From the NCBI GenBank assembly GCA_947631995.1, contig CANRNT010000009.1, positions 956 through 64,955 of the forward strand: a stretch of DNA of 64,000 nucleotides, written 5' to 3'. Shown one piece after another: positions 41,628 to 59,524 of this stretch; the stretch's first letter is position 1, and each line of letters starts with the position of its first letter. This stretch comes from an uncultured Clostridia bacterium (GTDB lineage: Bacteria; Bacillota; Clostridia; Oscillospirales; Ruminococcaceae). Position numbers and translations under genes: made by a program. The notes under the pieces were generated by a model. It was given only the letters and a program-made list of their open reading frames with translations. It searched no databases and was not told where the DNA came from.

Positions 41628-41818
41628 ATATATTATTTTATCGTATATAATGCCAAATTTACGCTTTTTCTCCCCTACCCTATTTGATTTATATCAATTT
41701 ATCGTGCTTTTTATGCTCATGTTCTTAGAAGTAAGATTATCCGAAGCAGAGAGAAAAAAATCGCAGAAAAAAGAGTACGCAAAAGTAAGGAAACAAAGAA
41801 AAGTGAGTGATTGTACAT

Positions 41819-42571: not shown

Positions 42572-42573
42572 TT

Positions 42574-44333: not shown

Positions 44334-44382
44334 CGATAAGTTATGCCATATTGATATAAGCAAAAAAAGACGGTGAAGTCAA

Positions 44383-44832: not shown

Positions 44833-44836
44833 AATA

Positions 44837-45550
44837 GTGAAAGTAAGTGTAGTGATACTTGCCGGAGGTACTGGCAGCAGAATGAAAATAGATATCCCCA
44901 AGCAATTTATTCAGGTCGATGATGTTCCGGTGATCGTAAACACAATCAGCAATTTCCAAAACAATACTCGAATCAACGACATTATCGTCGTTTGTTTGAA
45001 GGATTGGATCGGTTATTTACAGGAACTTGTCATGAAATATCATCTTGATAAAGTAATAAACATTGTCGAAGGTGGTGCTACGGGACATGATTCTACAAGA
45101 AATGGTATTTTTTCTCTATCGGAAACGATGAATGAAGATGATATCGTCGTGATTCATGACGCCGCTCGCCCGCTTATTCCTCAATTGATTATCAACGATA
45201 TGCTGGATACTGCAATCAAGCATGGAAATGCCTGTACTGCAATCAAGGTTCATGACACAGTCATTATTACCGAAGATCAGCAATCAGGTGATACACAAAT
45301 TGAACGCAGCAAAATCATGAGAGTACAAACGCCGCAGGCATACAGATATGGGACGATAAAGAATTTATATCAGCGTGCGGATAAGGAAAACAGACATGAT
45401 TTTATTTATGCCAACACAATGGCTATTACATACGGGGAACGAATTTATTTTTCCACGGGTTTTGACTGCAACATCAAATTGACCACCAAAGAAGATTTGG
45501 CATTTTACAAAGCAATGAAACAATTCAGTGAAGAGGAGTTAACCAAATGA
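44837..45550 (+). CDS. IspD/TarI-family cytidylyltransferase
   Basis: VVILAGGTGSRM...PKQF N-terminal signature, 237 aa. GTG start 4 nt after the preceding stop. Confidence 0.85.
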   Translation: MKVSVVILAGGTGSRMKIDIPKQFIQVDDVPVIVNTISNFQNNTRINDIIVVCLKDWIGYLQELVMKYHLDKVINIVEGGATGHDSTRNGIFSLSETMNEDDIVVIHDAARPLIPQLIINDMLDTAIKHGNACTAIKVHDTVIITEDQQSGDTQIERSKIMRVQTPQAYRYGTIKNLYQRADKENRHDFIYANTMAITYGERIYFSTGFDCNIKLTTKEDLAFYKAMKQFSEEELTK

Positions 45551-46578
45551 TTCTTTCGCCCATCGAAATTAATGAGTTTAAAATATATACAGAGCGATAT
45601 TCGTTCATACCATTTATAAAGGACAAGACTTTTCTTATCACAGGAAGTAATGGAATGATCAGTTCAGGAATAATTAAGTGGATGCTTTATGAAAATAAAA
45701 TTCATGGTGCTAATTGCCGCATTTTTGCGTCTACAAGACATCCTGAGAACATGCCCGATTATCTTGAAACGGACGATAATGTTGTCATGTGTCAGTTTGG
45801 GGCGGAAAGTCAGACTATCGGAAAAGAAAAGATCGATTACATTATTCATGCTGCTGCACCGACGGGCAGAAAATATTTTATATCAAAACCTGTTGAAACT
45901 ATTCGGGTTATAGTAGACGAAACCGAGAGGATGCTTGATTTAGCCAAAGAGAAAAATGCGCAAATGGTTTATCTGTCGTCAGTTGAAGCCTACGGTATCC
46001 CAAACGCCGACATCCCGATCAAGGAGACCTATGTTGGTGCCGTGGACAGCTTAGATATAAGAAATGGGTATCCGATGGGAAAGAAGGCGGCCGAGTTTTT
46101 ATGCTATGCGATGAGTAAAGAGTACGGAGTGAATGTTTACATTGTCAGGCTATCGTCTGTACAGGGGCTGCTCCAGCCCTACAATGAACAGAGAATCTTT
46201 AACGAAATTCTACGATGTGTAATCGAGGGCAAGGACTTGATCATGAAGTCCGATGGGCTCAGCAAAAAGTCAATTGTCTATTCTCTTGATGCAATTAGTG
46301 GCATTTTTACTGTATTGTTCAAAGGTGTATCCGGCGAGGCGTACAATATCACGGACCCATCCACTTATATGACGATGCGTGATTTGACATCCTATGTATT
46401 TGAAAAGTTTAACCCAAATTTGCATATTATTTTCGATATAGAAGATACATCAAAAACCGGATATTTGCCACATCTGGAATTTACTCAGGACATAACGAAG
46501 CTTCAAAAGCTGGGCTGGAAGCCGATTTCCGATTTGGAACACATATACAAAACAGATTTATCGAGATTCGGAGGATAA
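45547..46578 (+). CDS. NAD(P)-dependent epimerase/dehydratase-family SDR (putative reductase)
   Basis: Rossmann motif ITGSNGMISSG, catalytic YPMGKKAAE (YxxxK). ATGA overlap with the upstream gene. Confidence 0.8.
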   Translation: MILSPIEINEFKIYTERYSFIPFIKDKTFLITGSNGMISSGIIKWMLYENKIHGANCRIFASTRHPENMPDYLETDDNVVMCQFGAESQTIGKEKIDYIIHAAAPTGRKYFISKPVETIRVIVDETERMLDLAKEKNAQMVYLSSVEAYGIPNADIPIKETYVGAVDSLDIRNGYPMGKKAAEFLCYAMSKEYGVNVYIVRLSSVQGLLQPYNEQRIFNEILRCVIEGKDLIMKSDGLSKKSIVYSLDAISGIFTVLFKGVSGEAYNITDPSTYMTMRDLTSYVFEKFNPNLHIIFDIEDTSKTGYLPHLEFTQDITKLQKLGWKPISDLEHIYKTDLSRFGG

Positions 46579-46581
46579 GAA

Positions 46582-48369
46582 ATGATATTAGATAAAGTCA
46601 CATCTCCTGCGGATTTAAAAAAGATTCCTGCTGATAAGCTTCCGGAGTTAGCGCAGGAAATCAGAACAGCTCTGATCAATAAAACAAGCAGCTTTGGCGG
46701 GCATCTGGGGTCAAACCTTGGCGTTGTTGAATTGACGATTGCGCTTCACTATGTGTTTGATTCGCCTAAGGACAAAATTGTCTTTGATGTTTCCCATCAA
46801 TGCTATGTTCATAAGATACTGACTGGAAGAAAGGCCGCTTATCTTGATGAAAAGCTTTATCGAAGCGTAACAGGTTATACAAATCCTAAAGAAAGCATTC
46901 ACGATCAGTTCAATGTTGGCCATACCTCCACTTCCATTAGCTTGGCTTGCGGACTTGCTAAAGGCAGAAACATCTGTAACAGAAAAGAAAAAATAATTGC
47001 CGTTATCGGCGACGCGGCTTTAGATGGAGGAGAAGCGTTTGAAGCTTTGAACTCAGCCGTTGAGATTTGCGGAGGTCTTATAGTCGTTGTAAATGATAAC
47101 GACATGTCAATACCTGAAAATCATGGAGCACTTTGTGCGCATCTTGCCGAGCTTCGTAAAAATGAGGGTAAATGTGCAAACAACTTCTTTAAAGTGCTCG
47201 GCTTTGACTATTATTTTGTAAAAGACGGGCACAATATCGGGGATTTAATTGAGACGTTTAATAAGGTAAAAGATATTACATGCCCTGTGGTAGTACATTG
47301 CGTTACGAAAAAGGGAAAAGGATATAGTTTTGCGGAAAACAATCCCGAAAAATGGCATTGGGCGCATCCATTCGATATAGGGACCGGGGAGTTTCACAAA
47401 AGTACCTCTGTTCCGAAGGAAAATTACGGCTCCATTGTTGGGCAATATTTGATGCAAAAAATTAAAAACGATCCTACTGTTGTGGCTATGACAGCGTCAG
47501 TACCAGCGTACATCGGGTTTAATGTACAGAGGAGAAAAGAAGCCGTAAGTCAGTATGTTGATGTGGGAATAGCGGAAGCTAACGGTGTTACTATGGCAGC
47601 TGCAATTGCCAAAAGCGGCGGGAAGCCGGTATTTGTTACGGGCAGCTCGTTTTATCAACGGGCTTACGACCAAATTGAGCAGGAAATGTGTATAAACCGA
47701 TGCGCCGCTACCATGCTTGTCGCATTTTCCGGCATCAACGGACATGACAGCGATGCACATGCCGGTCTATACGACATTGCCTTATTAGGCAATATTCCCG
47801 GATTGATCTATTTAGCTCCATCTAATAAGCAGGAGTATTTGGCAATGCTTGACTGGAGCATTGAGCAAAATGAAAGCCCTGTTGCGATCCGCATCCCTTG
47901 GAACGGCGTTTATTACACAGACAAGCCTGTTCCTCAAGAGTATTCCAAGACGAAATACATGGTCAGAAAGAGCGGGGCGCAAGTTGCAATTCTCGGTCTT
48001 GGAAGCTTCTATCAGCTGGCGGAGCAGGTTGCAGAGCTGATTAATAAAGAACTGCATATTGAACCGACACTTATTGACCCTATGTTTATTACCGGCGTGG
48101 ACAAGCAGTTGCTGGAAGATTTAAAGCATGATCACAAGCTGATTGTCACCTTGGAGGACGGCATCGTTTCCGGCGGCTTTGGCGCAAGAATTTCGCAGTT
48201 TTACGGTATAGATGATATGAAAGTAATAAATTGCGGATTCCATACCGAGGTGCCAACGCAATTTACAGTTGAAGAAATGATGGAGAAAAACGGTCTTATG
48301 CCGGAACAGATACTGCAAAGAGTTAAAGATGTACTCAGTGTCGATGAGGCGAGTGAGGAGAAAAAATGA
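46582..48369 (+). CDS. DXS-like ThDP-dependent enzyme (second copy, glycan-locus paralog)
   Basis: Shares long blocks with the housekeeping Dxs in this window (GGHLGSNLGVVELT, FDSPKDKIVFDVSHQCYVHKILTGR, VGIAE, transketolase-like C-terminal half). The ThDP motif reads GDAALDGG...NDNDMSI, i.e. GDA instead of GDG. Confidence 0.85.
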   Translation: MILDKVTSPADLKKIPADKLPELAQEIRTALINKTSSFGGHLGSNLGVVELTIALHYVFDSPKDKIVFDVSHQCYVHKILTGRKAAYLDEKLYRSVTGYTNPKESIHDQFNVGHTSTSISLACGLAKGRNICNRKEKIIAVIGDAALDGGEAFEALNSAVEICGGLIVVVNDNDMSIPENHGALCAHLAELRKNEGKCANNFFKVLGFDYYFVKDGHNIGDLIETFNKVKDITCPVVVHCVTKKGKGYSFAENNPEKWHWAHPFDIGTGEFHKSTSVPKENYGSIVGQYLMQKIKNDPTVVAMTASVPAYIGFNVQRRKEAVSQYVDVGIAEANGVTMAAAIAKSGGKPVFVTGSSFYQRAYDQIEQEMCINRCAATMLVAFSGINGHDSDAHAGLYDIALLGNIPGLIYLAPSNKQEYLAMLDWSIEQNESPVAIRIPWNGVYYTDKPVPQEYSKTKYMVRKSGAQVAILGLGSFYQLAEQVAELINKELHIEPTLIDPMFITGVDKQLLEDLKHDHKLIVTLEDGIVSGGFGARISQFYGIDDMKVINCGFHTEVPTQFTVEEMMEKNGLMPEQILQRVKDVLSVDEASEEKK

Positions 48370-49343
48370 ATCCTTTAATCAGTTTAGTAATACCTGTATA
48401 TAACGTAGAAAAATATTTAGATAAATGTATGAAATCGGTCCTTGCACAAACCTATGATAACTTTGAGGTCATACTTGTCGACGATGGCTCGACTGATAAT
48501 AGCGGGAAAATGTGCGATGAGTATGCGGATATGGATAGTAAGGTCACTGTTTACCATAAGGCTAACGGCGGGCTTTCCGATGCTAGAAATTTTGGCGTTG
48601 AGCGCTGTAATGCCGACTTAGTTTCGTTCATTGATTCCGACGACTATGTGACCGTGGATTATCTTGAATACCTTTGGTATTTGATGAAAAAGTACAATGT
48701 AGATATTGCTTGCGCGACGGCAAAGAGAATTATCGAAACGTCTAAAATAAAGAATGACGATAACGGCAGCGAGATACTGTTAGACAGTTCGGAGGCAATA
48801 AAAAGAATATGTTATACATCATGCAGCGCATGCGTACGCCTTTATAAGAAACAATTACTTGTTGATAATCCTTATCCCGAAGGAAGATTATACGAAGATC
48901 TTGCGGCCACATGTAAAATATACGGGAACATTTCAAAAAGCGTATTCGGAGGGAAGACAATATATTATTGGGTTCAGCGACAAGGAGGAATAACACATAG
49001 CGAGATCGATAAAAAACAGTATGATTTGTTTTGGGCTGCCGATGAACAATTTAATTATATTTCCGAAAACTTTCCGGGGTCTGAGAGTGCATCGCGCACA
49101 AGATGCGTCATGGCATCTTGTGATTTTGTTACGCGGCTCTTTGGCGGAAAAAACAAAGATATGAAGCAACATTTTAAATATGCAAAAGACTACGCAAAAA
49201 AGCACTTGAAATATATTATAAAAGACAAAAGCACACCAAAACATGTAATCATTTCTGGATTGACTATATGTATGGGGTATACGGCGTCAAGAATCCTATG
49301 GCCGTTCAGACAAAGAATCAGAAAGGCGATTAGGGGTATTTAA
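48366..49343 (+). CDS. Family 2 glycosyltransferase
   Basis: ISLVIPVYNVEKYL...VDDGSTD...DSDD motifs. ATGA overlap with the upstream gene. Confidence 0.9.
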   Translation: MNPLISLVIPVYNVEKYLDKCMKSVLAQTYDNFEVILVDDGSTDNSGKMCDEYADMDSKVTVYHKANGGLSDARNFGVERCNADLVSFIDSDDYVTVDYLEYLWYLMKKYNVDIACATAKRIIETSKIKNDDNGSEILLDSSEAIKRICYTSCSACVRLYKKQLLVDNPYPEGRLYEDLAATCKIYGNISKSVFGGKTIYYWVQRQGGITHSEIDKKQYDLFWAADEQFNYISENFPGSESASRTRCVMASCDFVTRLFGGKNKDMKQHFKYAKDYAKKHLKYIIKDKSTPKHVIISGLTICMGYTASRILWPFRQRIRKAIRGI

Positions 49344-49347
49344 CAAA

Positions 49348-50418
49348 ATGTGGACATATTTCATTGCCACGTTACTGTCGGTTATTATAACATGGTTTGC
49401 TGTAAAATTACATAATGACAACATGAAAGCTAATTACAACAAAAATGTTATAAGCTCAGTTTTTGCTGTAATGTCATGCCTACCGCTTTTAATTGTTATG
49501 GCAGTAAGAAAAGGAGTCGGCACAGACTATTGGAGCTATCGAATATGGTTTAGCTCAAGTAATAGGGATGACTTGGAAATAGGATTTAAAACATTAAACA
49601 ACATTTTAAATATTATTTTCGGCGACCCTCAAAGCATATATATTGTTTGCGCAATCATAATATGCGGATTGTATTTTTATATGATTTATAAAGAGTCGAT
49701 ATCTCCGATTTACAGTGTGTTGCTTTTTGTTATATCGAAGGATTATTTTATAGCTATGAACGGCATGAGGCAATATGTGGCAGGGGCTATAGCTATGATG
49801 GCGTTCCCATATTTTAAAAAAAGAGATTGGAAAAAGTCGCTCCTAATTATTTTTATTGCATTTTTGTTCCATAAATCTGTCGTTATTCTAGTTGCTTTAT
49901 ATATTTTGATGGATATTGACATACATCCTGCTTGGGCAGTGGGTGTATTTGCGGGATTAGTATTGTTTTCAAATACAATAAAGAGGGTTATATTCCCCAT
50001 AATGAACAAAATCGGGTTTTATTCTAAATATCTTTCCACAACATCCCATTACAACAACTCCCAAGGAGAGTTTAACTGGCATGCCATACTGATATTTATG
50101 TGCTTTTTCATTCTGATTACGTATGAATATAAAAAGGTCAAAGCAAATCAGAGTCTGAAATTAGTTTACAGCGCGGTTTTGATAAGTCTGTTTATTGCTT
50201 CAATAGGTTCTATTCTGCCCCTTAATGCGCATCGTTTGACGTGGTATATGAATTCAGTTCTTGTACTGTATATACCGGAGGTTACACGGTCTTTAAGCGA
50301 CAAAAGGCTGAGAATGATCGTAGACATCATGATTATATTTGCATTTACGATTACTACTTTAATTGACATTTTAAACGGAAATCAGAATGTTATTCCGTAT
50401 CAGTCGATTTGGTCATAA
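49348..50418 (+). CDS. EpsG-family membrane protein (putative Wzy-type polymerase)
   Basis: About 10 TMs. The GxDYxxY-like motif (GTDYWSY) and MRQ..A motif are typical of the EpsG family. Confidence 0.75.
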   Translation: MWTYFIATLLSVIITWFAVKLHNDNMKANYNKNVISSVFAVMSCLPLLIVMAVRKGVGTDYWSYRIWFSSSNRDDLEIGFKTLNNILNIIFGDPQSIYIVCAIIICGLYFYMIYKESISPIYSVLLFVISKDYFIAMNGMRQYVAGAIAMMAFPYFKKRDWKKSLLIIFIAFLFHKSVVILVALYILMDIDIHPAWAVGVFAGLVLFSNTIKRVIFPIMNKIGFYSKYLSTTSHYNNSQGEFNWHAILIFMCFFILITYEYKKVKANQSLKLVYSAVLISLFIASIGSILPLNAHRLTWYMNSVLVLYIPEVTRSLSDKRLRMIVDIMIIFAFTITTLIDILNGNQNVIPYQSIWS

Positions 50419-50557
50419 AAATCGCCATGTTACCAATGCGCGATGCTTTTAGCGAATAAATTTTTGAATCCGAGGGAATATGCAACCGCTAAATAACCGT
50501 TTGTTTTAGAAGTTGAGAAGAGCGATGGTTAAAAATTTCATAGAGGATGGTGAAAAG

Positions 50558-51376
50558 ATGATACCTAAAATAATCCACTACTGTTGGTTCGGCGGAAAGC
50601 CATTGCCTGAATTGGCTCAGAAATGTATCGAGAGTTGGAAAAAATATTGTCCCGGTTACGAAATAAAACGGTGGGACGAAACTAATTTTGATATCAACTG
50701 TTGTGACTATGTACGCGAGGCATATGAGGCAAAGATGTGGGCTTTTGTCAGTGATTATGCAAGGTTCAAAATTCTTTATGAAAATGGCGGCGTTTACTTT
50801 GACACCGATGTGGAGCTTATAAAGCCCATAGACGACATCATTGCAAAAGGGTCTTTTATGGGTCTTGAAAAGTCAAGAAAGGAACACACAGCCCCCGGGC
50901 TCGGCCTGGCGGCCAACGCCGGGCTCGGCCTGGCGAAAGAAGTACTTGATAGCTATCATAATTCGCATTTTGAAAAAGACGAGAATGGGTCTTATGAAAC
51001 TGTCGTGACAAGAGTAACAAACATTATTTTAAAACATGGGGATATAAATCGTGATACAATAACAGAAATAGCAGAGATAACGATCTATCCGCCGGAATAC
51101 TTTTGCCCACTTAACTATTATACAGGTGAGATGAATATCACGGAAAATACAAGATCAATTCATCATTATATGGCAAGTTGGATTATTCCGGAGAGCAGAG
51201 TGGCACTATTAGTAAAGAAAAAGCTTTGCAGTAAAGGCGGAGTCCGAAAAGTTATTGGAAATATACTGGTCTTTGTATTAAGGGCTATAGGAAAGGTAAG
51301 AAAATTGGGAATCAGGAAAAGTTTAGAGTACATATTGAATAAGATCAAAATTACAAAATTTGGTTCGGGGGGGTAA
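50558..51376 (+). CDS. GT32-like glycosyltransferase (sugar-binding DXD family), copy 1
   Basis: IPKIIHYCWFGGKPLPE...ESWKKYCPGYEIKRWDE and DTD motif. Start trimmed to ATG 50558. Confidence 0.8.
   Translation: MIPKIIHYCWFGGKPLPELAQKCIESWKKYCPGYEIKRWDETNFDINCCDYVREAYEAKMWAFVSDYARFKILYENGGVYFDTDVELIKPIDDIIAKGSFMGLEKSRKEHTAPGLGLAANAGLGLAKEVLDSYHNSHFEKDENGSYETVVTRVTNIILKHGDINRDTITEIAEITIYPPEYFCPLNYYTGEMNITENTRSIHHYMASWIIPESRVALLVKKKLCSKGGVRKVIGNILVFVLRAIGKVRKLGIRKSLEYILNKIKITKFGSGG
50895..50935 (+). repeat. In-frame GC-rich direct repeat inside GT32-like copy 1
   Basis: CCGGGCTCGGCCTGGCG occurs at 50895-50911 and again at 50919-50935 (period 24 nt). It encodes PGLGLAAN-AGLGLA. The paralog lacks it. 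Confidence 0.9.
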
Positions 51377-51425
51377 TAACCTCATCTGAATATTATGCAT
51401 TGCACCTTCAAGTCGGAGGTGCGGC

Positions 51426-52217
51426 ATGATACCAAAAATAATTCATTATTGCTGGTTCGGCAAAAATCCTTTGCCGGAGCTCGCGCAGAAATGCATAGAG
51501 AGTTGGAAAAAGTATTGCCCTGACTATGAGATCAAACGGTGGGACGAGACTAATTTCGACTTGAATTACAATGCTTACGTTCGAGAAGCATATAATGCAA
51601 AGAAGTGGGCATTTGTAACGGACGTTGTTCGTCTTTATGCGTTGGTCAACTATGGCGGAATATATATGGATACCGATGTCGAGGTGATAAAACCCTTAGA
51701 TGATTTTTTGAAATATGAGGCTTTTTCCGGATTTGAATCACAAACCGAGATCCCTACAGGAATAATGGCAAGCGAAAATAATCAAGATCTTTTTATAGAA
51801 CTATTAGATGAATACAATGATGAGCATTTTTTAAATTCTGACGGTACATATAATGCTACTACAAACGTGATACGAATTACAAATACATGCTTAAAATATG
51901 GTTTTATCCCAAATAACAAATTTCAAATAATACGAGGTTTCGCTTTCTTCCCAAAAGACTATTTTTGTCCAAAAGATTATAAAACAAGAATAATTACTAT
52001 AACTAAAAACACATATACCATTCATCATTTTGATGGTTCATGGCTGAGTAAAGAAAAAAGATTAGCTAATCAATTGCAAACCAAATATCAGAAGTTTTTG
52101 CCGGTGCCAATAGCTCATTATTATGCAGAGTTTATTGCTATAAAACGCATACATGGTTTTAAGTCAGGCTTATTAGAAGTAAAGAATTGGATAAAAAACA
52201 AACTGAGTAAAAATTAG
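51426..52217 (+). CDS. GT32-like glycosyltransferase, copy 2
   Basis: The N-terminal 47 aa are nearly identical to copy 1 (MIPKIIHYCWFGKNPLPELAQKCIESWKKYCPDYEIKRWDETNFD). DTD motif present. Confidence 0.8.
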   Translation: MIPKIIHYCWFGKNPLPELAQKCIESWKKYCPDYEIKRWDETNFDLNYNAYVREAYNAKKWAFVTDVVRLYALVNYGGIYMDTDVEVIKPLDDFLKYEAFSGFESQTEIPTGIMASENNQDLFIELLDEYNDEHFLNSDGTYNATTNVIRITNTCLKYGFIPNNKFQIIRGFAFFPKDYFCPKDYKTRIITITKNTYTIHHFDGSWLSKEKRLANQLQTKYQKFLPVPIAHYYAEFIAIKRIHGFKSGLLEVKNWIKNKLSKN

Positions 52218-52231
52218 GAGAAACGTCGCAT

Positions 52232-53323
52232 ATGAAAACCATTCTTCTCGTCTTCGGCACACGACCCGAAGCGATAAAGATGTGCCCGCTTGTGAATGAA
52301 CTGAAGCGGCACAGCGAAATAAACACAATAGTTTGCGTAACAGGTCAGCACCGACAGATGCTGGATCAGGTTCTTGAAGCTTTCAATGTTGTTCCCGACT
52401 ATGACCTCTCAATTATGAAGGACAAGCAGACGCTTTTTGATATCACAACGAACATTCTGAACCGCATAAAGGAAGTCCTCGAAGAAGTAAAGCCCGATGT
52501 TGTGCTTGTTCACGGTGATACCACGACTACTTTCGTGACCGCGCTCGCGTGCTTCTATTTGCAGATACCCGTAGGTCACGTTGAGGCTGGTCTTCGTACA
52601 TACAACATATACAGCCCCTACCCCGAGGAATTCAACCGTCAGGCGGTAAGCATTATAAGTCGGTACAATTTCGCGCCGACAGAGCTTTCAAAGCAGAATC
52701 TTATCCGCGAGGGGAAAGACGAAAGTACTATCTATGTTACAGGCAACACGGCGATAGATGCGCTGAAGACTACGGTTCGTGAAAATTATCACCACCCCGA
52801 GCTTGACTGGGCAAACGGCAGCAGGCTGATACTCATTACCGCCCACCGCAGAGAAAATCTCGGCGAGCCTATGAAGCATATGTTTCGCGCAATCCGCCGA
52901 GTAATGGACGAGCACCCCGATGTTAAGGCAATTTATCCGATACATATGAATCCGATTGTCAGAGAAACGGCAGATGCGATTCTGGGCGGCGATGAGAGGA
53001 TACATATTATAGAACCACTCGACGTGCTTGATTTTCATAATTTTATGGCACGCAGCTATTTGATACTGACCGACAGCGGCGGAATACAGGAAGAAGCGCC
53101 GAGCCTTGGCAAGCCTGTGCTTGTTATGCGCGATACGACCGAGAGACCTGAGGGTATCAAGGCAGGAACGCTGAAGCTCGTCGGCACGGACGAAGAAACG
53201 ATCTATGCAGAATTCAAACGCCTGCTGACCGACAAGGAAGCGTATGACGCTATGTCTAAGGCGAGCAATCCGTATGGGGATGGACATGCGTGTGAGAGGA
53301 TAACCGCAATTATATTAAGTTAA
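52232..53323 (+). CDS. wecB: UDP-N-acetylglucosamine 2-epimerase (non-hydrolysing type by resemblance)
   Basis: FGTRPEAIKM, VHGDTTT, HVEAGLRT, TDSGGIQEEAP and ERPEG motifs. Confidence 0.9.
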   Translation: MKTILLVFGTRPEAIKMCPLVNELKRHSEINTIVCVTGQHRQMLDQVLEAFNVVPDYDLSIMKDKQTLFDITTNILNRIKEVLEEVKPDVVLVHGDTTTTFVTALACFYLQIPVGHVEAGLRTYNIYSPYPEEFNRQAVSIISRYNFAPTELSKQNLIREGKDESTIYVTGNTAIDALKTTVRENYHHPELDWANGSRLILITAHRRENLGEPMKHMFRAIRRVMDEHPDVKAIYPIHMNPIVRETADAILGGDERIHIIEPLDVLDFHNFMARSYLILTDSGGIQEEAPSLGKPVLVMRDTTERPEGIKAGTLKLVGTDEETIYAEFKRLLTDKEAYDAMSKASNPYGDGHACERITAIILS

Positions 53324-53344
53324 TAAATGTAAAGGAGTGTTAGA

Positions 53345-54184
53345 ATGATCCGTAAAATAAAACATATAGTTAAACCAATTATTGTGTTTCTATTTCATTT
53401 TATTTCGGTCATCTATGTTACAATAACAGGAAAAAGGAAAGAATCAGATACTTATTTAAATAATGTTAAAGATAAATACAAGGGTCAAAGGTGTTTTGTT
53501 ATAGGCAATGGACCGAGCTTGACTGCAAAAGATCTTGACAAACTGAAGAATGAAGTAACATTTGCATCTAACAGGATATATAAAATATTTGATCAGACAG
53601 ACTGGAGACCAACATATTTTACGATATTTGATGAGGGCGTAGGAAGAAGTGAAGGTGTAATAGATGGAATAAACTCATTTAAATGTGAAATGAAATTTGT
53701 TAGAGAAGAAGGGCAGTATATATTTGGTAAAATAAAAGGTCCTGTATGTTATGTTCGCTCGCTTTCTTCAAGAAAATATCTCGACAACCCGAATTTTTCC
53801 GAAGATATGACTGAAAAAACATATTCTATTGCAACTGTAACATATATTTCACTCCAGCTTGCACGGCATATGGGTTTTTCCGAAATTTATTTGTTAGGAA
53901 TGGATAACCAATATGCATTTTCTATGCTCAAAGATGGAACTATTGTTAAAAGTGACAATGGTAAAAACTATTTCAGTGATAAAGATGGTGAAAGTCAAAA
54001 GAAACATGAGCAGATTCCAAAATATGCACCGGCAACGTGGGAAATGGATGTAGCATACAGTTTTGCAGAAAAATACTCACGAGAGCATGGATTTAGGATA
54101 TACAATGCAACTCGTGGCGGCAAACTTGAAGTTTTTGAACGCATGGATTTTGACAGCTTGTTTCCGGAAGAAGATAAAAAATGA
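53345..54184 (+). CDS. DUF115 / MptE-like (GT42 CstII-like architecture) putative glycosyltransferase
   Basis: CFVIGNGPSL near the N-terminus and ...LARHMGFSEIYLLGMDNQY parallel the GNGPSL and GYKEIYLSGID motifs of CstII / Maf-type proteins. Confidence 0.6.
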   Translation: MIRKIKHIVKPIIVFLFHFISVIYVTITGKRKESDTYLNNVKDKYKGQRCFVIGNGPSLTAKDLDKLKNEVTFASNRIYKIFDQTDWRPTYFTIFDEGVGRSEGVIDGINSFKCEMKFVREEGQYIFGKIKGPVCYVRSLSSRKYLDNPNFSEDMTEKTYSIATVTYISLQLARHMGFSEIYLLGMDNQYAFSMLKDGTIVKSDNGKNYFSDKDGESQKKHEQIPKYAPATWEMDVAYSFAEKYSREHGFRIYNATRGGKLEVFERMDFDSLFPEEDKK

Positions 54185-55623
54185 ATATTTTATCAAAATA
54201 TAAAAGTTTGCCAACCCAAGTAAAAGCCACAATCTGGTTTGTAGCTTGCCAAGCAATTCAAAGCGGCTGCCGTTTTCTTGCAATGCCCTTTCTGGTGCGC
54301 CTGCTGACAACCGAACAGTACGGTATCTACAGTGTGTTTTTATCATGGCTGCAAATCATAACTTTATTTGCAACTTTGAATTTACATTGTGGCGTTTATA
54401 ACAATGCCATGTACAAATTTCCTGACCGCAGAAGCAGCTATACATCGGCATCGCAAAGCTTGTCCGTAGTCTGCACTTTTCTCTGCTTTGGAATCTATTT
54501 AATATTTCAAAATGCGTGGGATATGCTCTTTGGCATAAAACCTCTGTATGTTGTTCTTATTTTTGTTCAGCTATTGTTTACAGAGAGTTTCATGCTTTGG
54601 TCAGGTCGGCAACGATATGAATACAGATATATCAATCTGCTGATTTATACCGCCTTACTTGCTGTACTATACATGATTTTCCCCGTTGCAACGGCAGCAA
54701 TTTTTCCACAAGAACAGAGATTGACTGCTGTAATTGTAAGCGGTGTAATTGTTCATGCCGGTATAGGTCTTGGATTCATGATTTACAACTATATCAAAGG
54801 CAAGACATTTTATAATCGTGAATATTGGGGCTACTCTCTGAAATTCAATATTCCGCTGATACCGCACTATCTGTCTGGTATTGTTCTCGGACAAGCTGAT
54901 CGCATAATGATAAAAAAGTATATTGGCACGGCAGAAGCAGGTATTTACAGCTTTACATACAATATTTCACTTGTAATCAATATTATTACCGGTTCAATCA
55001 ATAATGCAATTGTCCCATATACTTATGAAAAACTAAAAAACAGGGATTACAAAAATCTAAAGAAAATATCTATTTTTCTTTTACTTATGATCGGCGGAAT
55101 GTGCCTTTCATTTTCGGCAATTGCTCCGGAATTACTGAAAATATTTGCAACAGAAGAATATTATGATGCAGTTTATCTTGTTCCGGTTATTTGTCTGAGT
55201 TCATACTTCACATTTCTTTACAGTTTGTTTGGAAACATCGAATTTTTCTTTGAAGCAAATAAATTTATCACAATGGCATCAATTACCGGCGCGGTCGTTA
55301 ATGTTATCTTAAATTACGTTTTAATGCCGATTTTCGGCTATTATGCGGCTGGATATACAACGCTTTTCTGCTATATTGTGTTCAGTCTGGGACATTACAT
55401 TTTTATGCGTATCGTTTGTAAGAAAAAGATTGACGGTGATAAAGTATACAATGGCACTGCAATTCTGTTGATTTCCATTGCATTTGTACTGTTGGCATTT
55501 GGTATGATGTTGATTTACGATTATCCGCTGATTCGCTACACGCTGATTCTTATAGCAATTGTGGTTTGCTTTATGAGGCGTGAACGTATCATAGGCTATT
55601 TTAAGATGATAAAGGAGAAATAA
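54181..55623 (+). CDS. Wzx-type oligosaccharide flippase (MOP superfamily)
   Basis: 480 aa, about 12-14 TMs, typical polysaccharide-biosynthesis-protein layout. ATGA overlap with the upstream gene. Confidence 0.8.
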   Translation: MNILSKYKSLPTQVKATIWFVACQAIQSGCRFLAMPFLVRLLTTEQYGIYSVFLSWLQIITLFATLNLHCGVYNNAMYKFPDRRSSYTSASQSLSVVCTFLCFGIYLIFQNAWDMLFGIKPLYVVLIFVQLLFTESFMLWSGRQRYEYRYINLLIYTALLAVLYMIFPVATAAIFPQEQRLTAVIVSGVIVHAGIGLGFMIYNYIKGKTFYNREYWGYSLKFNIPLIPHYLSGIVLGQADRIMIKKYIGTAEAGIYSFTYNISLVINIITGSINNAIVPYTYEKLKNRDYKNLKKISIFLLLMIGGMCLSFSAIAPELLKIFATEEYYDAVYLVPVICLSSYFTFLYSLFGNIEFFFEANKFITMASITGAVVNVILNYVLMPIFGYYAAGYTTLFCYIVFSLGHYIFMRIVCKKKIDGDKVYNGTAILLISIAFVLLAFGMMLIYDYPLIRYTLILIAIVVCFMRRERIIGYFKMIKEK

Positions 55624-55626
55624 ATT

Positions 55627-56280
55627 ATGAAAATTGTAGGAGTTACACCTGTCAAGATGAACAATGTAAGAACACCCGGCAAAAATACAAAACTATTAAG
55701 TGATGGAACTCCATTGATCCATCTTATCCAAAAAGCAATGTTAAATATTCCTGAAATTGATGACTACTATGTTTACTGTAGTAATGAAAAAATACAGGAC
55801 TTTTTGCTTGAAGGAACTAAATACATGAAACGTGATACAATGTTTGATACTGCTGAAGCTGATGTTATAGAAATGATGTATCAGTTTTCTTTGCTTGTTG
55901 ATGCAGATGTATATATACAAATTCACGCAACTACTCCGTTTATTTCAAGTAAATCTATTCAAAAAGGAATTGAAATGATAAAAAAAGGTTATGATTCCAC
56001 ATTCGCTGTAAAGAAAATGCAAGATTTTTTATGGACTAATGAGAAACCTTTGAACTATTCGTTAGAAAAAATACCAAGAACACAAGATATGCAGCCGTTT
56101 TTCATTGAAACAACAGGAATGTACATATATACAAAGGATGTAATACAAAAATTGCATCGTCGAATTGGAAACAACCCATATTTATTGGAAGTTTCTGAAA
56201 TCGAGTCTATTGATATTGATGACCCGATAGATTTTGAAATTGCAGATGCGATTTATTCAAAAATTGTCAAGAAAAAATGA
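55627..56280 (+). CDS. Acylneuraminate (NeuA/KdsB-type) cytidylyltransferase family protein
   Basis: 217 aa. N-terminal P-loop-like ...VKMNNVRTPGKNTKLL and ...IQIHATTPF motif resemble CTP_transf_3 enzymes. Confidence 0.7.
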   Translation: MKIVGVTPVKMNNVRTPGKNTKLLSDGTPLIHLIQKAMLNIPEIDDYYVYCSNEKIQDFLLEGTKYMKRDTMFDTAEADVIEMMYQFSLLVDADVYIQIHATTPFISSKSIQKGIEMIKKGYDSTFAVKKMQDFLWTNEKPLNYSLEKIPRTQDMQPFFIETTGMYIYTKDVIQKLHRRIGNNPYLLEVSEIESIDIDDPIDFEIADAIYSKIVKKK

Positions 56281-56289
56281 GGAATAAAA

Positions 56290-57867
56290 ATGCAGAATAT
56301 TCACGTTTTAGATTGCACCTTGCGTGACGGCGGATATGTGAACAATTGGGAATTTGGAGAAAAAAACATCAAAGAAATAGCTGAAAGGCTATGTGATTCA
56401 GCAATTGAATATCTTGAATGCGGATTTTTAAGCGAAACAAAATCAAGCACAGAACAACAAAGCATTTTTCAATCAATTCAAAATGCAAATGAAAAATTTG
56501 CTGGCTGTTCTCGTCATATTGCGCTTATGGTGAATTGCGGAGAAGTAAAAGCAGACGACATTCCGGTATATAACAGTGGAAAAGTATCTTTAATAAGAAT
56601 TGCTTTCCACAAACATCAGATAGAAGAAGCACAGGATTTATGCAGTAAGTTAAAGGAAAAAGGCTATAGAGTTTTCTTTCAGCCCATGGTAACAATGAGT
56701 TACAGCGACCAAGAATTGCTTGATTTGATCCAATGGGCAAATAGAAGCGAACCTGATGCGTTTTACATTGTTGACAGTTTTGGAACAATGAGAAAAAACG
56801 AGGTTATGCGCTTCTTTTATCTGATAGACAACAATCTGGATCCAAAAATAAAAATCGGTTTTCATTCGCATAATAATCTGCAATTGTCATTTTCCAACGC
56901 GCAAGAATTGATGATGATGAACTCAAAACGGGATATTATCATAGACTCCTCCGTCTTCGGTATGGGCAGGGGCGCAGGAAATCTCTGCACAGAGCTTCTG
57001 ACACAGTACATAAACGAAAATATAGAGAACAAATACGACCTTATACCGATTTTGGAGATAATGGACGAGTACATAATGACAATATATTCCACACGTCCGT
57101 GGGGGTATTCCGCGCCGTATTACATAGCCGCGATAAACAATTGTCACCCGAATTATGCAACATTTCTGATGAACAAGCAGACGCTGTGTATTCGCGACAT
57201 CAATACGATCATAAGAAGTATCCCGGAAGAAAACAAACGCCTATACAGCGTTGATCTTATCTCGGAACTTTACAAAAATTATCAGCAGCACAATATTGAC
57301 GACAGCGAAATGCTTCAAAAAGTAAAAGAGTTGTGCAGCGCAAGAAAAGTATTGATACTTGCTCCCGGAAAAAGTCTTGCAACTTATTCTGATAAGATCA
57401 GACAGTTCATTGAGGATAATTCTCCTGTAATTTTTGCTATAAATCACATTCCGAAAAAATTTCCGTATGACATTGTGTTTGTCAGCAATCTGAAACGTTT
57501 TAAGGGGCTAGACGATGCTGTTGAGAAACTTGGAGAGCATCTGATATGCACATCTAATATCTCAACAGAACACGCTGTAAATTATTCTTCGTATCTTAAT
57601 GAGGAGGAGATAATTTCAGACAACGCCGGACTTATGCTTATCAATTTTCTTAAAAAGGCGGCTGTGCATGATCTGTATCTTGCAGGCTTTGACGGTTTTC
57701 AGACATCGGGCGAGGAAAACTATTTTGACGGGAAAATGAATCTGAATATCCAGTATCAGAAACGCGAAGAAATGAATCTCGCGATCATAAGATATATTTT
57801 GAAACTAAAACAGAATCTGAACGTCAATTTCCTGACACCGACGATTTATGATACAGGTGATGCGTGA
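56290..57867 (+). CDS. DRE-TIM (HMGL-like) pyruvate aldolase/synthase domain fused to a C-terminal DUF115-like domain
   Basis: N-terminal VLDCTLRDGGY...HSHNN metal-site motifs of the HMGL-like / 4-hydroxy-2-oxovalerate-aldolase family. The C-terminal ~190 aa (VLILAPGKSL...LYLAGFDGF) echo the GNGPSL/..LGMD pattern of 53345..54184. Confidence 0.7.
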   Translation: MQNIHVLDCTLRDGGYVNNWEFGEKNIKEIAERLCDSAIEYLECGFLSETKSSTEQQSIFQSIQNANEKFAGCSRHIALMVNCGEVKADDIPVYNSGKVSLIRIAFHKHQIEEAQDLCSKLKEKGYRVFFQPMVTMSYSDQELLDLIQWANRSEPDAFYIVDSFGTMRKNEVMRFFYLIDNNLDPKIKIGFHSHNNLQLSFSNAQELMMMNSKRDIIIDSSVFGMGRGAGNLCTELLTQYINENIENKYDLIPILEIMDEYIMTIYSTRPWGYSAPYYIAAINNCHPNYATFLMNKQTLCIRDINTIIRSIPEENKRLYSVDLISELYKNYQQHNIDDSEMLQKVKELCSARKVLILAPGKSLATYSDKIRQFIEDNSPVIFAINHIPKKFPYDIVFVSNLKRFKGLDDAVEKLGEHLICTSNISTEHAVNYSSYLNEEEIISDNAGLMLINFLKKAAVHDLYLAGFDGFQTSGEENYFDGKMNLNIQYQKREEMNLAIIRYILKLKQNLNVNFLTPTIYDTGDA

Positions 57868-58502
57868 TGAAACAGCTTGTTATTTTTGATATGGACGGCA
57901 CGCTTGCCGACACTTCCGAAGGCATTTTTAACAGCATTCGCTGCACGCAAAAAATGATGGATCTGCCTGAGATCACATATGAGCAAATGCTTTCTCATGT
58001 AGGGCCGCCAATGGAAGAATCGTATCACAGAAATTTTGGACTTACGGGCGAAAAATTGCAGCAGGCGGTGAAATTTCACAAGGAATATGCCATGCAAAAA
58101 GGCTACCGCGAGCTGAAAGTTTATGACGGGATAATTGACCTGCTGAAAGAATTACGGAAAAACAAAATAAAAACGACGATTGCAACGCTTAAAGCGCAGT
58201 CAACGGCAGAGAAAATCGCAGATGAGTATTTCCCGGATCTGTTTGATCTAATTATAGGCGCTGATGTAAACACTCCCAAAACAAAGGTCCAAATGCTACT
58301 AGAATGTACAAATAAAACTCTGGTAAAAAAAGAAAATGCCGTCCTTGTCGGGGACAGCATTTATGATGTCAAAGGCGCAGCGGGAGCAGAAATTGATTTT
58401 ATTGCTGTGACTTATGGGTTTGGGTTTAAAGCCGATGAACAAACTTTGGCAGAGCATATTGCTGTTGCAAACGCTCCTGCGGACTTAATAAAGTATGTAT
58501 AG
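57867..58502 (+). CDS. HAD-superfamily phosphatase (subfamily IA-like)
   Basis: FDMDGTLADT motif I, a T/S motif II region, and a VGDSIYD motif IV region. ATG 57867 overlaps the upstream TGA (TGATG). GTG 57864 is an alternative start. Confidence 0.8.
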   Translation: MKQLVIFDMDGTLADTSEGIFNSIRCTQKMMDLPEITYEQMLSHVGPPMEESYHRNFGLTGEKLQQAVKFHKEYAMQKGYRELKVYDGIIDLLKELRKNKIKTTIATLKAQSTAEKIADEYFPDLFDLIIGADVNTPKTKVQMLLECTNKTLVKKENAVLVGDSIYDVKGAAGAEIDFIAVTYGFGFKADEQTLAEHIAVANAPADLIKYV

Positions 58503-59479: not shown

Positions 59480-59524
59480 CCCTTATCCCGAAGAAGCAGC
59501 TTTTCGGATAAGGGTATTTTATTT
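59480..59524 (+). terminator. Rho-independent terminator
   Basis: CCCTTATCC(C)G ... CGGATAAGGG stem followed by TATTTTATTT. Confidence 0.7.

Follow-up and report, generated by a model that had tools for sequence, protein, structure and literature searches.

Two kinds of pathway to CMP-activated 2-ulosonic acids provide the closest described precedents. In the Kdo pathway (KdsD, KdsA, KdsC, KdsB) a 3-deoxy-2-ulosonate phosphate is formed by condensation, dephosphorylated and activated with CMP, KdsA belonging to the PEP-dependent DAHP/Kdo8P synthase family, while the sialic acid and Kdn pathways (NeuB, or NANS with the HAD phosphatase NANP, and NeuA/CMAS; a Kdn-9-P synthase and phosphatase in Bacteroides) follow the order synthase, HAD phosphatase, CMP-synthetase and sialyltransferase-like glycosyltransferase. 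Metal-dependent DRE-TIM barrels are found in the class II pyruvate aldolases DmpG and BphI of aromatic catabolism and in LeuA, CimA and homocitrate synthase, where the barrel catalyzes the first committed step of the pathway and is followed by a C-terminal accessory domain able to bind the end product. Pyruvate aldolases are reversible, and DRE-TIM enzymes also perform acyl-CoA Claisen condensations; sequence alone does not separate these chemistries.

The window analyzed here (the whole stretch of 64,000 nucleotides) is from a gut Firmicute and contains, within a surface-polysaccharide locus, a module of five tightly coupled and presumably co-transcribed genes at 53345-58502, for which the sequence-only reading had proposed a Kdo- or sialate-like logic built around a DRE-TIM aldolase instead of NeuB or KdsA. 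The open reading frames lie exactly where that reading had placed them, their spacing and Pfam domains agree with the gene set it had named (Table 1), and all motifs it had quoted occur in the translations (GNGPSL and YLLGMD in the DUF115 protein, LDCTLRDGGY and HSHNN in the barrel, APGKSL and YLAGFDGF in the C-terminal domain). The module begins 21 nt behind the end of wecB and its junctions are, in order, a 4-nt overlap of the flippase start with the stop of the DUF115 gene, gaps of 3 and 9 nt, and a further 4-nt overlap. The polysaccharide locus has a GC content of 36-43%, compared to 45-51% in its flanks, and its remainder encodes a Bac_transf initiating transferase, an acetyltransferase, a TarF-like transferase, RpiB, an IspD-like protein, an SDR, a DXS paralog, a GT2, an EpsG-type polymerase, two Gly_transf_sug glycosyltransferases and WecB.

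Table 1. Features of the five-gene module and of its surroundings, in window positions.
Feature	Position	Strand	Length, domain and proposed role
DUF115/MptE-like protein	53345..54184	+	279 aa; probable CstII/Maf-type (GT42-like) transferase using a CMP-activated sugar
Wzx-type flippase	54181..55623	+	480 aa; Pfam Polysacc_synt, E 4e-17
CMP-ulosonate synthetase-type cytidylyltransferase ("W-type")	55627..56280	+	217 aa; Pfam CTP_transf_3, E 1.5e-13
Aldolase fusion protein	56290..57867	+	525 aa; DRE-TIM barrel, linker and C-terminal domain
Fusion residues 1-257, DRE-TIM (HMGL-like) metal-dependent aldolase barrel	56290..57060	+	Pfam HMGL-like, residues 4-257, E 7e-22; proposed C-C bond-forming step
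Fusion residues 258-335, helical linker/subdomain after the barrel	57061..57294	+	helical in the AF2 model
Fusion residues 336-525 and stop, family-specific C-terminal alpha/beta domain	57295..57867	+	remote CstII/DUF115/MptE-like nucleotide-binding fold
HAD-IA (Gph/PpaX-like, COG0546) phosphatase	57864..58502	+	212 aa; Pfam HAD_2, E 1e-31; would dephosphorylate an ulosonate phosphate at its distal position
Context outside the module: remainder of the Wzx/Wzy-type polysaccharide locus	41807..53323	+	contents given in the text

In our reading, which we consider probable (roughly 60%), the module is self-contained and serves the synthesis, activation, attachment and export of an acidic sugar, a 3-deoxy-2-ulosonic acid of the Kdo/Kdn/KDG class, with the aldolase replacing KdsA/NeuB. 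The N-terminal DRE-TIM domain would bind pyruvate on a divalent metal (through D13, H192 and H194, with R12) and its enolate would react with an aldose phosphate from central metabolism to a 4-hydroxy-2-oxo acid phosphate, in place of the PEP-dependent reaction of KdsA/NeuB. The HAD phosphatase would then take off the distal phosphate, rendering the aldol step, by itself reversible, practically irreversible, the CTP_transf_3 enzyme would join CMP to the anomeric hydroxyl, the CstII/Maf-like DUF115 protein would move the sugar onto an undecaprenyl-linked repeat unit, and the adjacent Wzx would flip the latter. The observations comprise the gene content, the folds, the conserved residues of the active site, the conserved neighborhoods and the fusions of genes; from these we infer every chemical step and the identity of the sugar. 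Our best guess for the latter is an eight-carbon Kdo-like acid derived from arabinose-5-P, while a KDG-like C6 or a Kdn-like C9 acid is retained as an alternative product. No gene that would supply the aldehyde acceptor is conserved among the neighbors of the fusion loci, so that the identity of the acceptor is a guess.

Among the NCBIfam models the barrel matches 4-hydroxy-2-oxovalerate aldolase best, although far below the cut-off (95.6 vs. 229 bits). Its closest solved structure is 3dxi, the N-terminal domain of the putative aldolase BVU_2661 from Bacteroides vulgatus (structural genomics, 2008; sequence E 1.8e-32, Foldseek E 1.7e-15), followed by aldolases of the DmpG type. The alignment of the fusion to 3dxi extends as far as residue 315, with the LDCTLRDGGY and H.H.NLQL motifs common to both, and an invariant block (WGY..PYY..A..N.CHPNYA) is located in the linker. 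The 3dxi structure covers the barrel alone and carries no assigned function; the term "N-terminal domain" in its title implies the same two-part architecture for BVU_2661. Across the family the DRE-TIM metal ligands and the catalytic arginine (R12, D13, H192, H194) are invariant, as is Y16, which is aligned to the histidine of the RDGSH motif; since an invariant tyrosine thus stands in place of the base of DmpG/BphI, the mechanism may differ. In profile-HMM and structure comparisons the N-terminal half is not an ordinary isopropylmalate or homocitrate synthase; the 4-hydroxy-2-oxovalerate aldolases and 3dxi gave the top scores, albeit well under the cut-offs.

A rival reading is a Claisen-type synthase: acetyl- or acyl-CoA and a 2-oxo acid would be joined by the DRE-TIM domain, as in citramalate, homocitrate and isopropylmalate synthases, and the resulting hydroxy-acid, which is not a sugar, would be activated with CMP and added to the polymer. 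Such a reading, which we regard as improbable, could draw on matches, weaker but real, to structures and models (E 1e-13 to 1e-9) of homocitrate/isopropylmalate synthases, on the catalytic histidine of the aldolases that is not kept, and on the C-terminal accessory domains that are typical of DRE-TIM synthases. However, the aldolases and 3dxi score best by far (95.6 vs. ∼51 bits; PDB E 1e-32 and 4e-13 vs. 2e-6), and the partners of the fusion are KdsB- or CMP-sialate-synthetase-type enzymes and sialyltransferase-like glycosyltransferases, i.e., enzymes of cyclic 2-ulosonic acids. Moreover, variant loci carry a KDG kinase or a KdsD-like isomerase, and an open-chain alkylmalate would presumably offer no anomeric hydroxyl for CMP.

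The C-terminal domain has no Pfam match, and the DUF115-like pattern that the sequence-only reading had seen repeated there proved to be real but remote: hhalign aligned it to the DUF115 profile with a probability of 74% (E 2.9e-5, motifs in register; 42% in an earlier run), and the top Foldseek matches of its AF2 model (pLDDT 84.6) were the archaeal MptE pyrophosphokinase (HPPK) 8sd5 (E 8.7e-4, TM ∼0.5) and SteA. We place it, as a diverged member, in the CstII/DUF115/MptE superfamily of nucleotide-binding proteins. Invariant residues occupy 37 of its 195 columns, and a search of 1.84 billion representatives with its profile returned only 1226 matches, the best 150 of which are fusions of ∼520-540 aa, longer fusions, or shorter proteins that, among those inspected, look N-terminally truncated. 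Most likely the domain binds a CMP-sugar and serves as a second, or channelling, transferase, or else senses the end product in the way of the regulatory domains of LeuA and CimA; ATP binding as a kinase is less likely. The family alignment contains no invariant histidine downstream of the LAGFDG motif, which we take to be the expected site of the catalytic histidine of CstII.

The 279-aa protein belongs to Pfam PF01973 (MptE-like/DUF115, E 2.5e-17), with a weak NCBIfam match to PseD. Its resemblance to CstII (GT42) and to the Maf flagellin NulO transferases is borne out by a family profile (the protein and its locus homologs), which matches the CstII sialyltransferases 1ro7 and 2x63 (E ∼3e-7), the LOS alpha-2,3-sialyltransferase 9c08 (E 5.7e-7) and Maf 5mu5 (E 8e-6). 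The cytidylyltransferase falls under every NCBIfam cut-off for KdsB and PseF; its best PDB matches are PpNeuA 9t4z (2.6e-17) and the mouse CMP-Neu5Ac synthetase 1qwj (1.3e-12), and its catalytic motifs P-x-KN-K, QxTxPF, PRxQD and DIDxxxD are conserved and align with those of CMP-sialate synthetases. For the HAD phosphatase the best NCBIfam models are PpaX and phosphoglycolate phosphatase, both below their cut-offs, and its PDB relatives are COG0546 phosphatases without assigned function.

The fusion family comprises ∼8000 full-length clusters; in the species genomes of GTDB at least 592 loci encode it, in Clostridia, Bacilli, Bacteroidota, Spirochaetes, Melainabacteria, Fusobacteria and Proteobacteria. 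Gottfriedia acidiceleris DSM 18954, Proteocatella sphenisci DSM 23131 and Anaeromicropila herbilytica TB5 are carriers in culture. We counted neighbors over 80 related loci from different species. Of these, 73 contain a CTP_transf_3 gene, which in 66 is the immediate neighbor of the fusion gene in the same orientation. A HAD ortholog follows immediately in 28; against the proposed scheme, HAD is absent beside the fusion in ∼60%. Transferases of the GT52-like, polysialyltransferase-like or DUF115 type are found nearby in 58 loci (homologs of the DUF115 protein in 22-23, of the flippase in 27); they resemble sialyltransferases and not the known families of Kdo transferases, which also counts against the reading. 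In five loci the place of the HAD is taken by a KDG/KDGal kinase whose gene lies downstream of the fusion gene and is translationally coupled to it; this kinase echoes keto-deoxy-acid chemistry, but the simple scheme does not account for a kinase where others carry a phosphatase. The triad of cytidylyltransferase, fusion and HAD is kept across phyla, down to 25% identity on a Leisingera plasmid, where PGAP names an aldolase domain protein, a CMP-Kdo synthetase and a HAD. Cytidylyltransferase and aldolase are even joined in one protein, in either order (aldolase and C-terminal domain first in P0018, CTP_transf_3 first in P0094), and another protein (P0163) unites aldolase, C-terminal domain and HAD. 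Adjacency and gene fusions together place the association of cytidylyltransferase and fusion beyond chance.

Of the 36 partners that differ from the window type, 35 match KdsB models (E≤1e-20), those of two loci (L035 and L086) exceeding curated KdsB-subfamily cut-offs. Many of these KdsB-type partners are from Gram-positives, including Bacillaceae, Proteocatella, Flavonifractor and Dysosmobacter. In a similarity tree of the fusion proteins both partner types are interleaved, and the nearest relatives of the window protein have either type. One locus (L068) has a KdsD-like SIS isomerase followed by DUF115, KdsB, fusion and HAD genes. The queries for KdsD and NeuB gave sensible matches, and that for KdsA had no positive control; with them, a NeuB-like gene was detected close to the fusion in just three of the 80 loci, a KdsA-like gene in none, and neither within the 64-kb window. 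Linkage, fusions, partner types and the near absence of these synthases thus uphold the proposal that an aldolase probably provides a CMP-activated 3-deoxy-2-ulosonic acid.

Alternatively, a standard ulosonic acid (Kdo, Pse, Leg or Neu5Ac) might be made by a canonical KdsA or NeuB encoded elsewhere, and the fusion might cleave or recycle excess ulosonate like NanA or add a pyruvate-derived substituent. We judge this unlikely, albeit less so than the Claisen-type synthase: for the source genome the absence of KdsA/NeuB refers to the 64-kb window, the three loci with NeuB and the five with a coupled kinase of catabolic type would fit, as would the reversibility of pyruvate aldolases. But the aldolase has been fused to the cytidylyltransferase independently in either order, and also to the HAD, which points to consecutive steps of one pathway; adjacency extends across phyla, and in one locus (L084) the three-gene cassette stands alone with no other sugar-pathway gene nearby. 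In addition, Gram-positive lineages, in which an LPS Kdo pathway is not expected, are among those with KdsB-type partners.

Two further suggestions of the sequence-only reading, concerning genes on either side of the module, were not sustained. The wecB gene was thought to supply a ManNAc-type acceptor, but it is of the non-hydrolysing type (WecB model 526 bits, cut-off 210; NeuC model 119.5 bits, cut-off ∼236), so that its product is UDP-ManNAc and not free ManNAc, and of the 80 loci only three have a WecB homolog close to the fusion. On the other side, PepM, Ppd and Fe-ADH are encoded 1-5 kb downstream, and HMGL-like enzymes are reportedly branch points in phosphonate pathways; the DRE-TIM enzyme might thus act on phosphonopyruvate in the manner of FrbC, Pms or Psf2 as part of that cassette. 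This appears very improbable, as all 80 loci lack a PEP mutase within ±10 kb of the fusion gene, and the PepM operon is separated from the module by a surface-protein gene and then a hairpin with a T-run (read by eye), and has its own sigma70-like promoter site (12/12).

If the aldolase-based reading holds, an uncharacterized metal-dependent pyruvate aldolase fusion, on which full-text literature searches found no papers, stands in for KdsA/NeuB in a cassette recurring in hundreds of bacterial species. With the Kdo pathway the module would share its overall logic, as well as KdsB-type cytidylyltransferases in about half of the related loci and a KdsD-like isomerase in one, but its condensing enzyme is a DRE-TIM protein instead of KdsA, its phosphatase is of the Gph/COG0546 and not the KdsC type, its transferases are GT42-, GT52- or GT38-like and not GT30, GT99 or GT107, and the cytidylyltransferase in the window scores below the KdsB cut-offs. 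The order of functions, the cytidylyltransferase and the CstII/Maf-like protein connect it with the sialic acid and Kdn pathways, from which it differs in having neither a NeuB/SAF-domain synthase nor conserved amino-sugar tailoring or a hydrolysing NeuC. DmpG and BphI have the same TIM-barrel fold with aligned RD motif and HxH metal ligands and are the best-scoring named family, whereas the fusion has tyrosine for the RDGSH histidine, no DmpF-type dehydrogenase among its conserved neighbors, a biosynthetic context and an additional C-terminal domain of 190 aa. This domain is a remote relative of CstII, Maf and MptE, with its own relatives, among the matches listed, almost exclusively within this fusion. 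In its two-part architecture the protein finally resembles LeuA, CimA and homocitrate synthase, by analogy with which a regulatory role of the C-terminal domain may be envisaged, although its fold is not that of LeuA_dimer and the chemistry is probably aldol rather than Claisen.

The N-terminal part of the 525-aa fusion protein is a barrel of the DRE-TIM metallolyase superfamily, as the sequence-only reading had proposed in calling it HMGL-like: residues 4-257 score 78.5 bits against PF00682 (cut-off 29), and Foldseek matches the barrel to DRE-TIM structures with a probability of 1.0. Its nearest relative by far is 3dxi, the N-terminal domain of the putative aldolase BVU_2661 from Bacteroides vulgatus (sequence E 1.8e-32; Foldseek E 1.7e-15), followed by 4-hydroxy-2-oxovalerate aldolases of the DmpG type and then by homocitrate/isopropylmalate synthases. 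In a 20-sequence alignment of the fusion family, R12, D13, H192 and H194 are invariant; R12-D13, the predicted Arg-Asp pair closing strand 1, align with the TLRDG of 4lrs and 3dxi, and H192/H194, the predicted metal ligands, with their HxH.

Among curated family models, the fusion stays far under the cut-off of every named family. Compared with the DmpG/BphI aldolases it reaches 83.4 bits with TIGR03217 (cut-off 286) and 95.6 bits with NF006049 (cut-off 229), and the catalytic His of their RDGSH motif is missing from the fusion family, its position being occupied by an invariant Tyr16. A DmpF-like acylating aldehyde dehydrogenase was found neither in the window nor among the 30 commonest neighbour clusters of related loci. 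Nor does the protein model as an ordinary isopropylmalate or homocitrate synthase: its best score against the isopropylmalate/homocitrate/citramalate synthases is 50.9 bits (cut-off about 414), it has RDGGY instead of their RDGEQ, and in place of the LeuA_dimer-type C-terminal domain of isopropylmalate-type synthases it carries a domain without a Pfam match and with a probably CstII/MptE-like fold. By score, motif, partner and architecture, the fusion is thus a DRE-TIM enzyme outside both the DmpG and the LeuA families.

The fusion gene belongs to a five-gene module whose ORFs, strand and positions agree with what had been read from the sequence alone, and every motif quoted in that reading was found in the translations. 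The junctions within the module are, in gene order, -4, +3, +9 and -4 nt, and wecB precedes it by 21 nt. The stretch containing the module is low in GC (36-43% vs 45-51% in the flanks) and is a Wzx/Wzy-type polysaccharide locus, with a Bac_transf initiator, an EpsG-type polymerase, GT2 and Gly_transf_sug glycosyltransferases, a TarF-like transferase and WecB.

Coordinates of the module, of its surroundings in the window and of features in related loci (L numbers denote related loci with a fusion homologue)
Sequence	Coordinates	Strand	Feature	Length (aa)	Pfam match
Window	43047-48369	+	TarF-like glycerol/ribitol-phosphate transferase, RpiB, IspD-like cytidylyltransferase, SDR, DXP synthase paralog		
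Window	50513-51376	+	First tandem glycosyltransferase (DXD)		Gly_transf_sug
Window	51426-52217	+	Second tandem glycosyltransferase (DXD)		Gly_transf_sug
Window	53345-58502	+	Five-gene module		
Window		+	Module gene 1, transferase	279	MptE-like/DUF115
Window		+	Module gene 2, flippase	480	Polysacc_synt (Wzx)
Window		+	Module gene 3, cytidylyltransferase	217	CTP_transf_3
Window		+	Module gene 4, fusion	525	HMGL-like (residues 4-257 only)
Window		+	Module gene 5, HAD	212	HAD_2
Window	58817-59461	+	Secreted surface protein	214	None
Window	about 59480-59525		Hairpin plus T-run		
Window	59588-59616		Promoter-like site before PepM		
Window	59588-63898	+	PepM cassette, continuing past the window end		
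Window	59651		Probable PepM start (ATG)		
L013	3447-5462		DxDxT protein	about 670	None
L035	11590-12615		KDG/KDGal kinase		PfkB
L068	7320-7949		KdsD-like isomerase		
L084	6450-12233		KdsB-like/fusion/HAD cassette		
L086 (NZ_CP035420.1)	51079-54081		Triad on Leisingera sp. NJS204 plasmid		

Two further features of this locus may be recorded. A group of genes from the TarF-like transferase to the DXP synthase paralog looks like a pathway to a CDP-activated pentitol phosphate, possibly with a 1-deoxy-pentitol phosphate as its product instead; its IspD-like enzyme scores slightly below both the IspD and the ribitol-5-P cytidylyltransferase cut-offs, and the DXP synthase paralog, an unusual presence within a polysaccharide locus, is full-length (802.8 bits, cut-off 510). 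The tandem Gly_transf_sug glycosyltransferases look like a recent duplication, their N-terminal halves being almost the same (IPKIIHYCWFG..PLPELAQKCIESWKKYCP.YEIKRWDETNFD).

The DUF115 protein scores 63.6 bits against PF01973 (cut-off 34.6), and G56, P57, S58, G185 and D187 of its GxGPS and LxGxD motifs are invariant. A profile made from this protein and 18 homologues encoded beside related cassettes, searched against the PDB, matched the CstII alpha-2,3/2,8-sialyltransferases 1ro7 and 2x63 (E about 3e-7), the LOS alpha-2,3-sialyltransferase 9c08 (E 5.7e-7), Maf (5mu5, E 8e-6) and the archaeal MptE kinase 8sd5 (E 0.03). Judged by these sequence matches, it is a CstII/Maf-type (GT42-like) transferase. 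The cytidylyltransferase reaches 51.5 bits against PF02348 (cut-off 22.6) and about 30 bits against KdsB models (cut-offs 193-255), and none of the curated KdsB and PseF cut-offs is attained. Its closest PDB alignments are to CMP-sialic-acid synthetases, PpNeuA (9t4z, 2.6e-17) and mouse CMAS (1qwj, 1.3e-12), and it keeps the N-terminal P-x-KN-K loop, QxTxPF, PRxQD and the C-terminal DIDxxxD; as a CTP_transf_3 protein with conserved catalytic motifs it would count as a CMP-NulO synthetase. The HAD protein is a generic COG0546 (Gph/PpaX-like, IA) phosphatase and, by family models and PDB relatives, not a KdsC-type enzyme (HAD-IIIA, 8KDO).

The fusion family comprises ~8000 clusters, nearly all of 520-540 aa, and is annotated publicly only as 'aldolase catalytic domain-containing protein' or '4-hydroxy 2-oxovalerate aldolase'; in the full-text literature no description of the family or of the cassette was found. 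At least 592 homologues were listed among GTDB species genomes, with carriers in Clostridia, Bacilli, Bacteroidota, Treponema, Melainabacteria, Fusobacterium, Acholeplasmataceae, Alpha- and Gammaproteobacteria and Helicobacteraceae. Cultured carriers include Gottfriedia acidiceleris DSM 18954, Proteocatella sphenisci DSM 23131, Anaeromicropila herbilytica TB5, Polaribacter porphyrae NBRC 108759 and Flavonifractor sp. An82. No match was found by blastn in 5,426 E. coli genomes, which is uninformative at such divergence.

For the 80 best-scoring loci, ORFs within +/-10 kb were called mechanically, neighbours were clustered and HMMs were built. In this top-scoring, gut MAG-rich subset, counted with HMMs trained on the same loci, a CTP_transf_3 gene occurs in 73 of 80 loci and lies directly adjacent to the fusion gene on the same strand, usually immediately upstream, in 66, and a Gph-type HAD follows directly downstream in 28 (34 loci have a HAD anywhere). 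Sialyltransferase-type families accompany the cassette in 58/80 loci, counting those with at least one of GT52-like (28), polysialyltransferase-like (24) or DUF115 genes (22-23). The components are also joined in three independent fusion proteins, P0018 (aldolase-Cterm-cytidylyltransferase), P0094 (cytidylyltransferase-aldolase-Cterm) and P0163 (aldolase-Cterm-HAD). The same triad, at 25% identity, is found on a plasmid of the marine roseobacter Leisingera sp. NJS204 (Roseobacteraceae), where PGAP annotates an aldolase-domain protein, a 3-deoxy-manno-octulosonate cytidylyltransferase and a HAD hydrolase. The C-terminal domain of this version has LGAGSG as its Gly-rich loop, and GT2, sulfotransferase and GDP-fucose genes adjoin.

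Individual loci vary in composition. In two of them (L033, L066) the fusion gene is present twice and each copy is paired with a separate cytidylyltransferase; as many as four CTP_transf_3 genes occur in L033. In 21 of the 80 loci, the GT52-like and polysialyltransferase-like genes beside the cassette are accompanied by a family of proteins of about 670 aa that have a HAD-like DxDxT motif near the N-terminus and may act as a polymerase or as a modifying enzyme of the module's sugar. The L084 cassette, on a 108-kb contig and with no glycosyltransferase nearby, lies directly behind an MBOAT and DHHW/AlgX pair, components of extracytoplasmic polymer acylation.

As to the product, the adjacent cytidylyltransferases split into 29 orthologues of the window enzyme and 37 different ones. 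Of the latter, 35 of the 36 scanned match KdsB (CMP-Kdo synthetase) models (E<=1e-20), those of L035 and L086 exceeding curated KdsB-subfamily cut-offs, and KdsB-type partners were found in, among others, Bacillaceae, Proteocatella, Flavonifractor and Dysosmobacter loci. Window-type and KdsB-type partners are interleaved on the fusion-protein similarity tree, which speaks against their marking two fusion subfamilies and hence two products. Given this interleaving, and since the nearest relatives of the window fusion (L001, L002, L012) pair with either class, both classes probably act on one acid or on closely similar acids. The canonical synthases are scarce here: searches with approximate queries, that for KdsA lacking a positive control, found a KdsA-like ORF in 0/80 loci and a NeuB-like synthase near the fusion gene in 3/80, and neither within the window. 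A locus of a Dysosmobacter MAG (L068) encodes, in order, a single-SIS KdsD-like arabinose-5-P isomerase (E 1.8e-31), DUF115, a KdsB-like protein, the fusion and a HAD, which amounts to a Kdo-type operon complete except that KdsA is replaced; such an isomerase occurs in this one of the 80 loci only. Among the neighbours of the 80 loci there is no conserved precursor-supply gene and so no clue to chain length. In five loci (L028, L035, L047, L064, L065) the place of the HAD, just downstream of the fusion gene and translationally coupled to it, is taken by a KDG/KDGal kinase that matches the kinase portion of KHG/KDPG aldolase-kinase fusions (E 1e-165); this variant, with a kinase instead of a phosphatase, is not explained by the pathway proposed below. 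Together, the partners, missing synthases and variant loci point to 2-keto-3-deoxy sugar-acid chemistry without fixing the chain length. The E. coli K3 capsule, with its labile hexulosonic acid side branch, offers a loose lead only.

The C-terminal 190 residues of the fusion had been read as a repeat of the DUF115-like pattern. Pfam and PDB sequence searches returned only noise (SteA, E 0.1; D-lyxose isomerase in 7 members, E>=0.007), and the signal came from profile-profile and fold comparison alone. Against the DUF115/CstII-like family the domain aligned with 74% probability (E 2.9e-5; 42% in an earlier run), pairing APGKSL with GNGPSL and YLAGFDG with YLLGMDN, and the best Foldseek matches of its AF2 model (pLDDT 84.6) were the MptE pyrophosphokinase 8sd5 (E 8.7e-4, TM about 0.5) and SteA. 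The likeness is a remote one and does not extend to a Pfam or PDB sequence match. Conservation is as strong in the domain as in the barrel (37 invariant columns of 195), and its HMM found only 1226 relatives among 1.84 billion representatives. Since the best 150 of these truncated in the cases inspected, the domain appears specific to the fusion architecture. Candidate stand-alone copies of roughly 280 aa start within the helical linker and seem to be gene predictions cut short, and a 'glycosyltransferase' beside a broken fusion homologue on a Desulfobaculum plasmid has no homology to the domain. We rank first that the domain may be a CMP-sugar-binding module serving in channelling or as a second transferase; in L084 the three-gene cassette has no further transferase within 10 kb. 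It may alternatively sense the end product, as the regulatory domains of LeuA and CimA do. An ATP-dependent kinase, to which the structural neighbours MptE and SteA would point, is the least likely of the three.

Two connections drawn in the sequence-only reading fell away. WecB, proposed as a possible source of a ManNAc-type acceptor, is of the non-hydrolysing kind (526 bits, cut-off 210; NeuC model 119.5, cut-off about 236) and occurs near the fusion in only 3/80 loci; most likely its product enters the repeat as a ManNAc residue and is not the aldol acceptor. The suggested link to phosphonate metabolism is not borne out by the survey, a PEP mutase domain occurring within +/-10 kb of the fusion in 0/80 loci. 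Downstream of the HAD gene in the window come a 315-nt gap that contains an 11/12 promoter-like site, a surface-protein gene and the hairpin plus T-run, and PepM is preceded by a perfect 12/12 TTGACA-17-TATAAT, sigma70-like site with an upstream TG. The surface protein, lying between module and phosphonate operon, has a signal peptide, a Ser-rich stalk, a C-terminal hydrophobic anchor and a weak match to the Ruminococcus-type NPXTG anchor. The listed TTG start of PepM is the -35 box of the 12/12 site, which makes the downstream ATG the probable true start. PepM itself is an NTP_transf_3, CTP_transf_like and PEP mutase fusion, followed by an Fe-ADH, which suggests a hydroxyethylphosphonate-type head group, and a phosphonopyruvate decarboxylase.

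The Kdo/sialate-like logic as such agrees with gene content, neighbourhood and component fusions. We propose that the barrel would enolise metal-bound pyruvate and add it to an aldose phosphate of central metabolism; the HAD would then remove the distal phosphate, rendering the reversible aldol step irreversible, and the cytidylyltransferase would form the CMP-glycoside, from which the CstII-like DUF115 enzyme would transfer the sugar to the lipid-linked repeat for export by Wzx. A widespread KdsA/NeuB-independent route to CMP-3-deoxy-2-ulosonates, in which a metal-dependent pyruvate aldolase acts on an aldose phosphate, a dedicated phosphatase confers irreversibility and a CstII/MptE-like domain is permanently fused as CMP-sugar channel or sensor, is a reading to which we give somewhat less than even odds (roughly 45%).

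If the fusion is the condensing enzyme, it would be a second, evolutionarily unrelated solution to this condensation in hundreds of species, especially gut commensals, and would give a function to the large family annotated as 'aldolase catalytic domain-containing protein', to which the structural-genomics target 3dxi of 2008 belongs; it would also provide a pyruvate-based biocatalyst for making ulosonic acids. Gram-positive gut bacteria (Oscillospiraceae, Lachnospiraceae, Bacillaceae) would then bear Kdo-like surface sugars or an undescribed ulosonic acid, predicted to be acid-labile and sialic-acid-like, which could matter for immune recognition and for phage or lectin binding, and genome mining based on NeuB/KdsA would miss part of the bacteria displaying such sugars. 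The KdsB homologues found here in Gram-positive lineages would be explained. Arabinose-5-P isomerases have been reported in organisms lacking LPS, and these too would find an explanation.

To our knowledge, all characterised CMP-keto-deoxy-sugar pathways (Kdo, sialic, pseudaminic, legionaminic, Kdn) use a PEP-dependent synthase of the KdsA/NeuB family. Compared with the sialic/nonulosonic pathway (NeuB/PseI/LegI plus NeuA), the module shares the CTP_transf_3 motifs and has no NeuB-family synthase in its window; compared with the Kdo pathway, no KdsA-like ORF was found in the window or the 80 loci, and its HAD is Gph/PpaX-like rather than of the KdsC type. The module would thus work like the Kdo and sialate/Kdn pathways and differ from them at their defining step, the KdsA/NeuB synthase.
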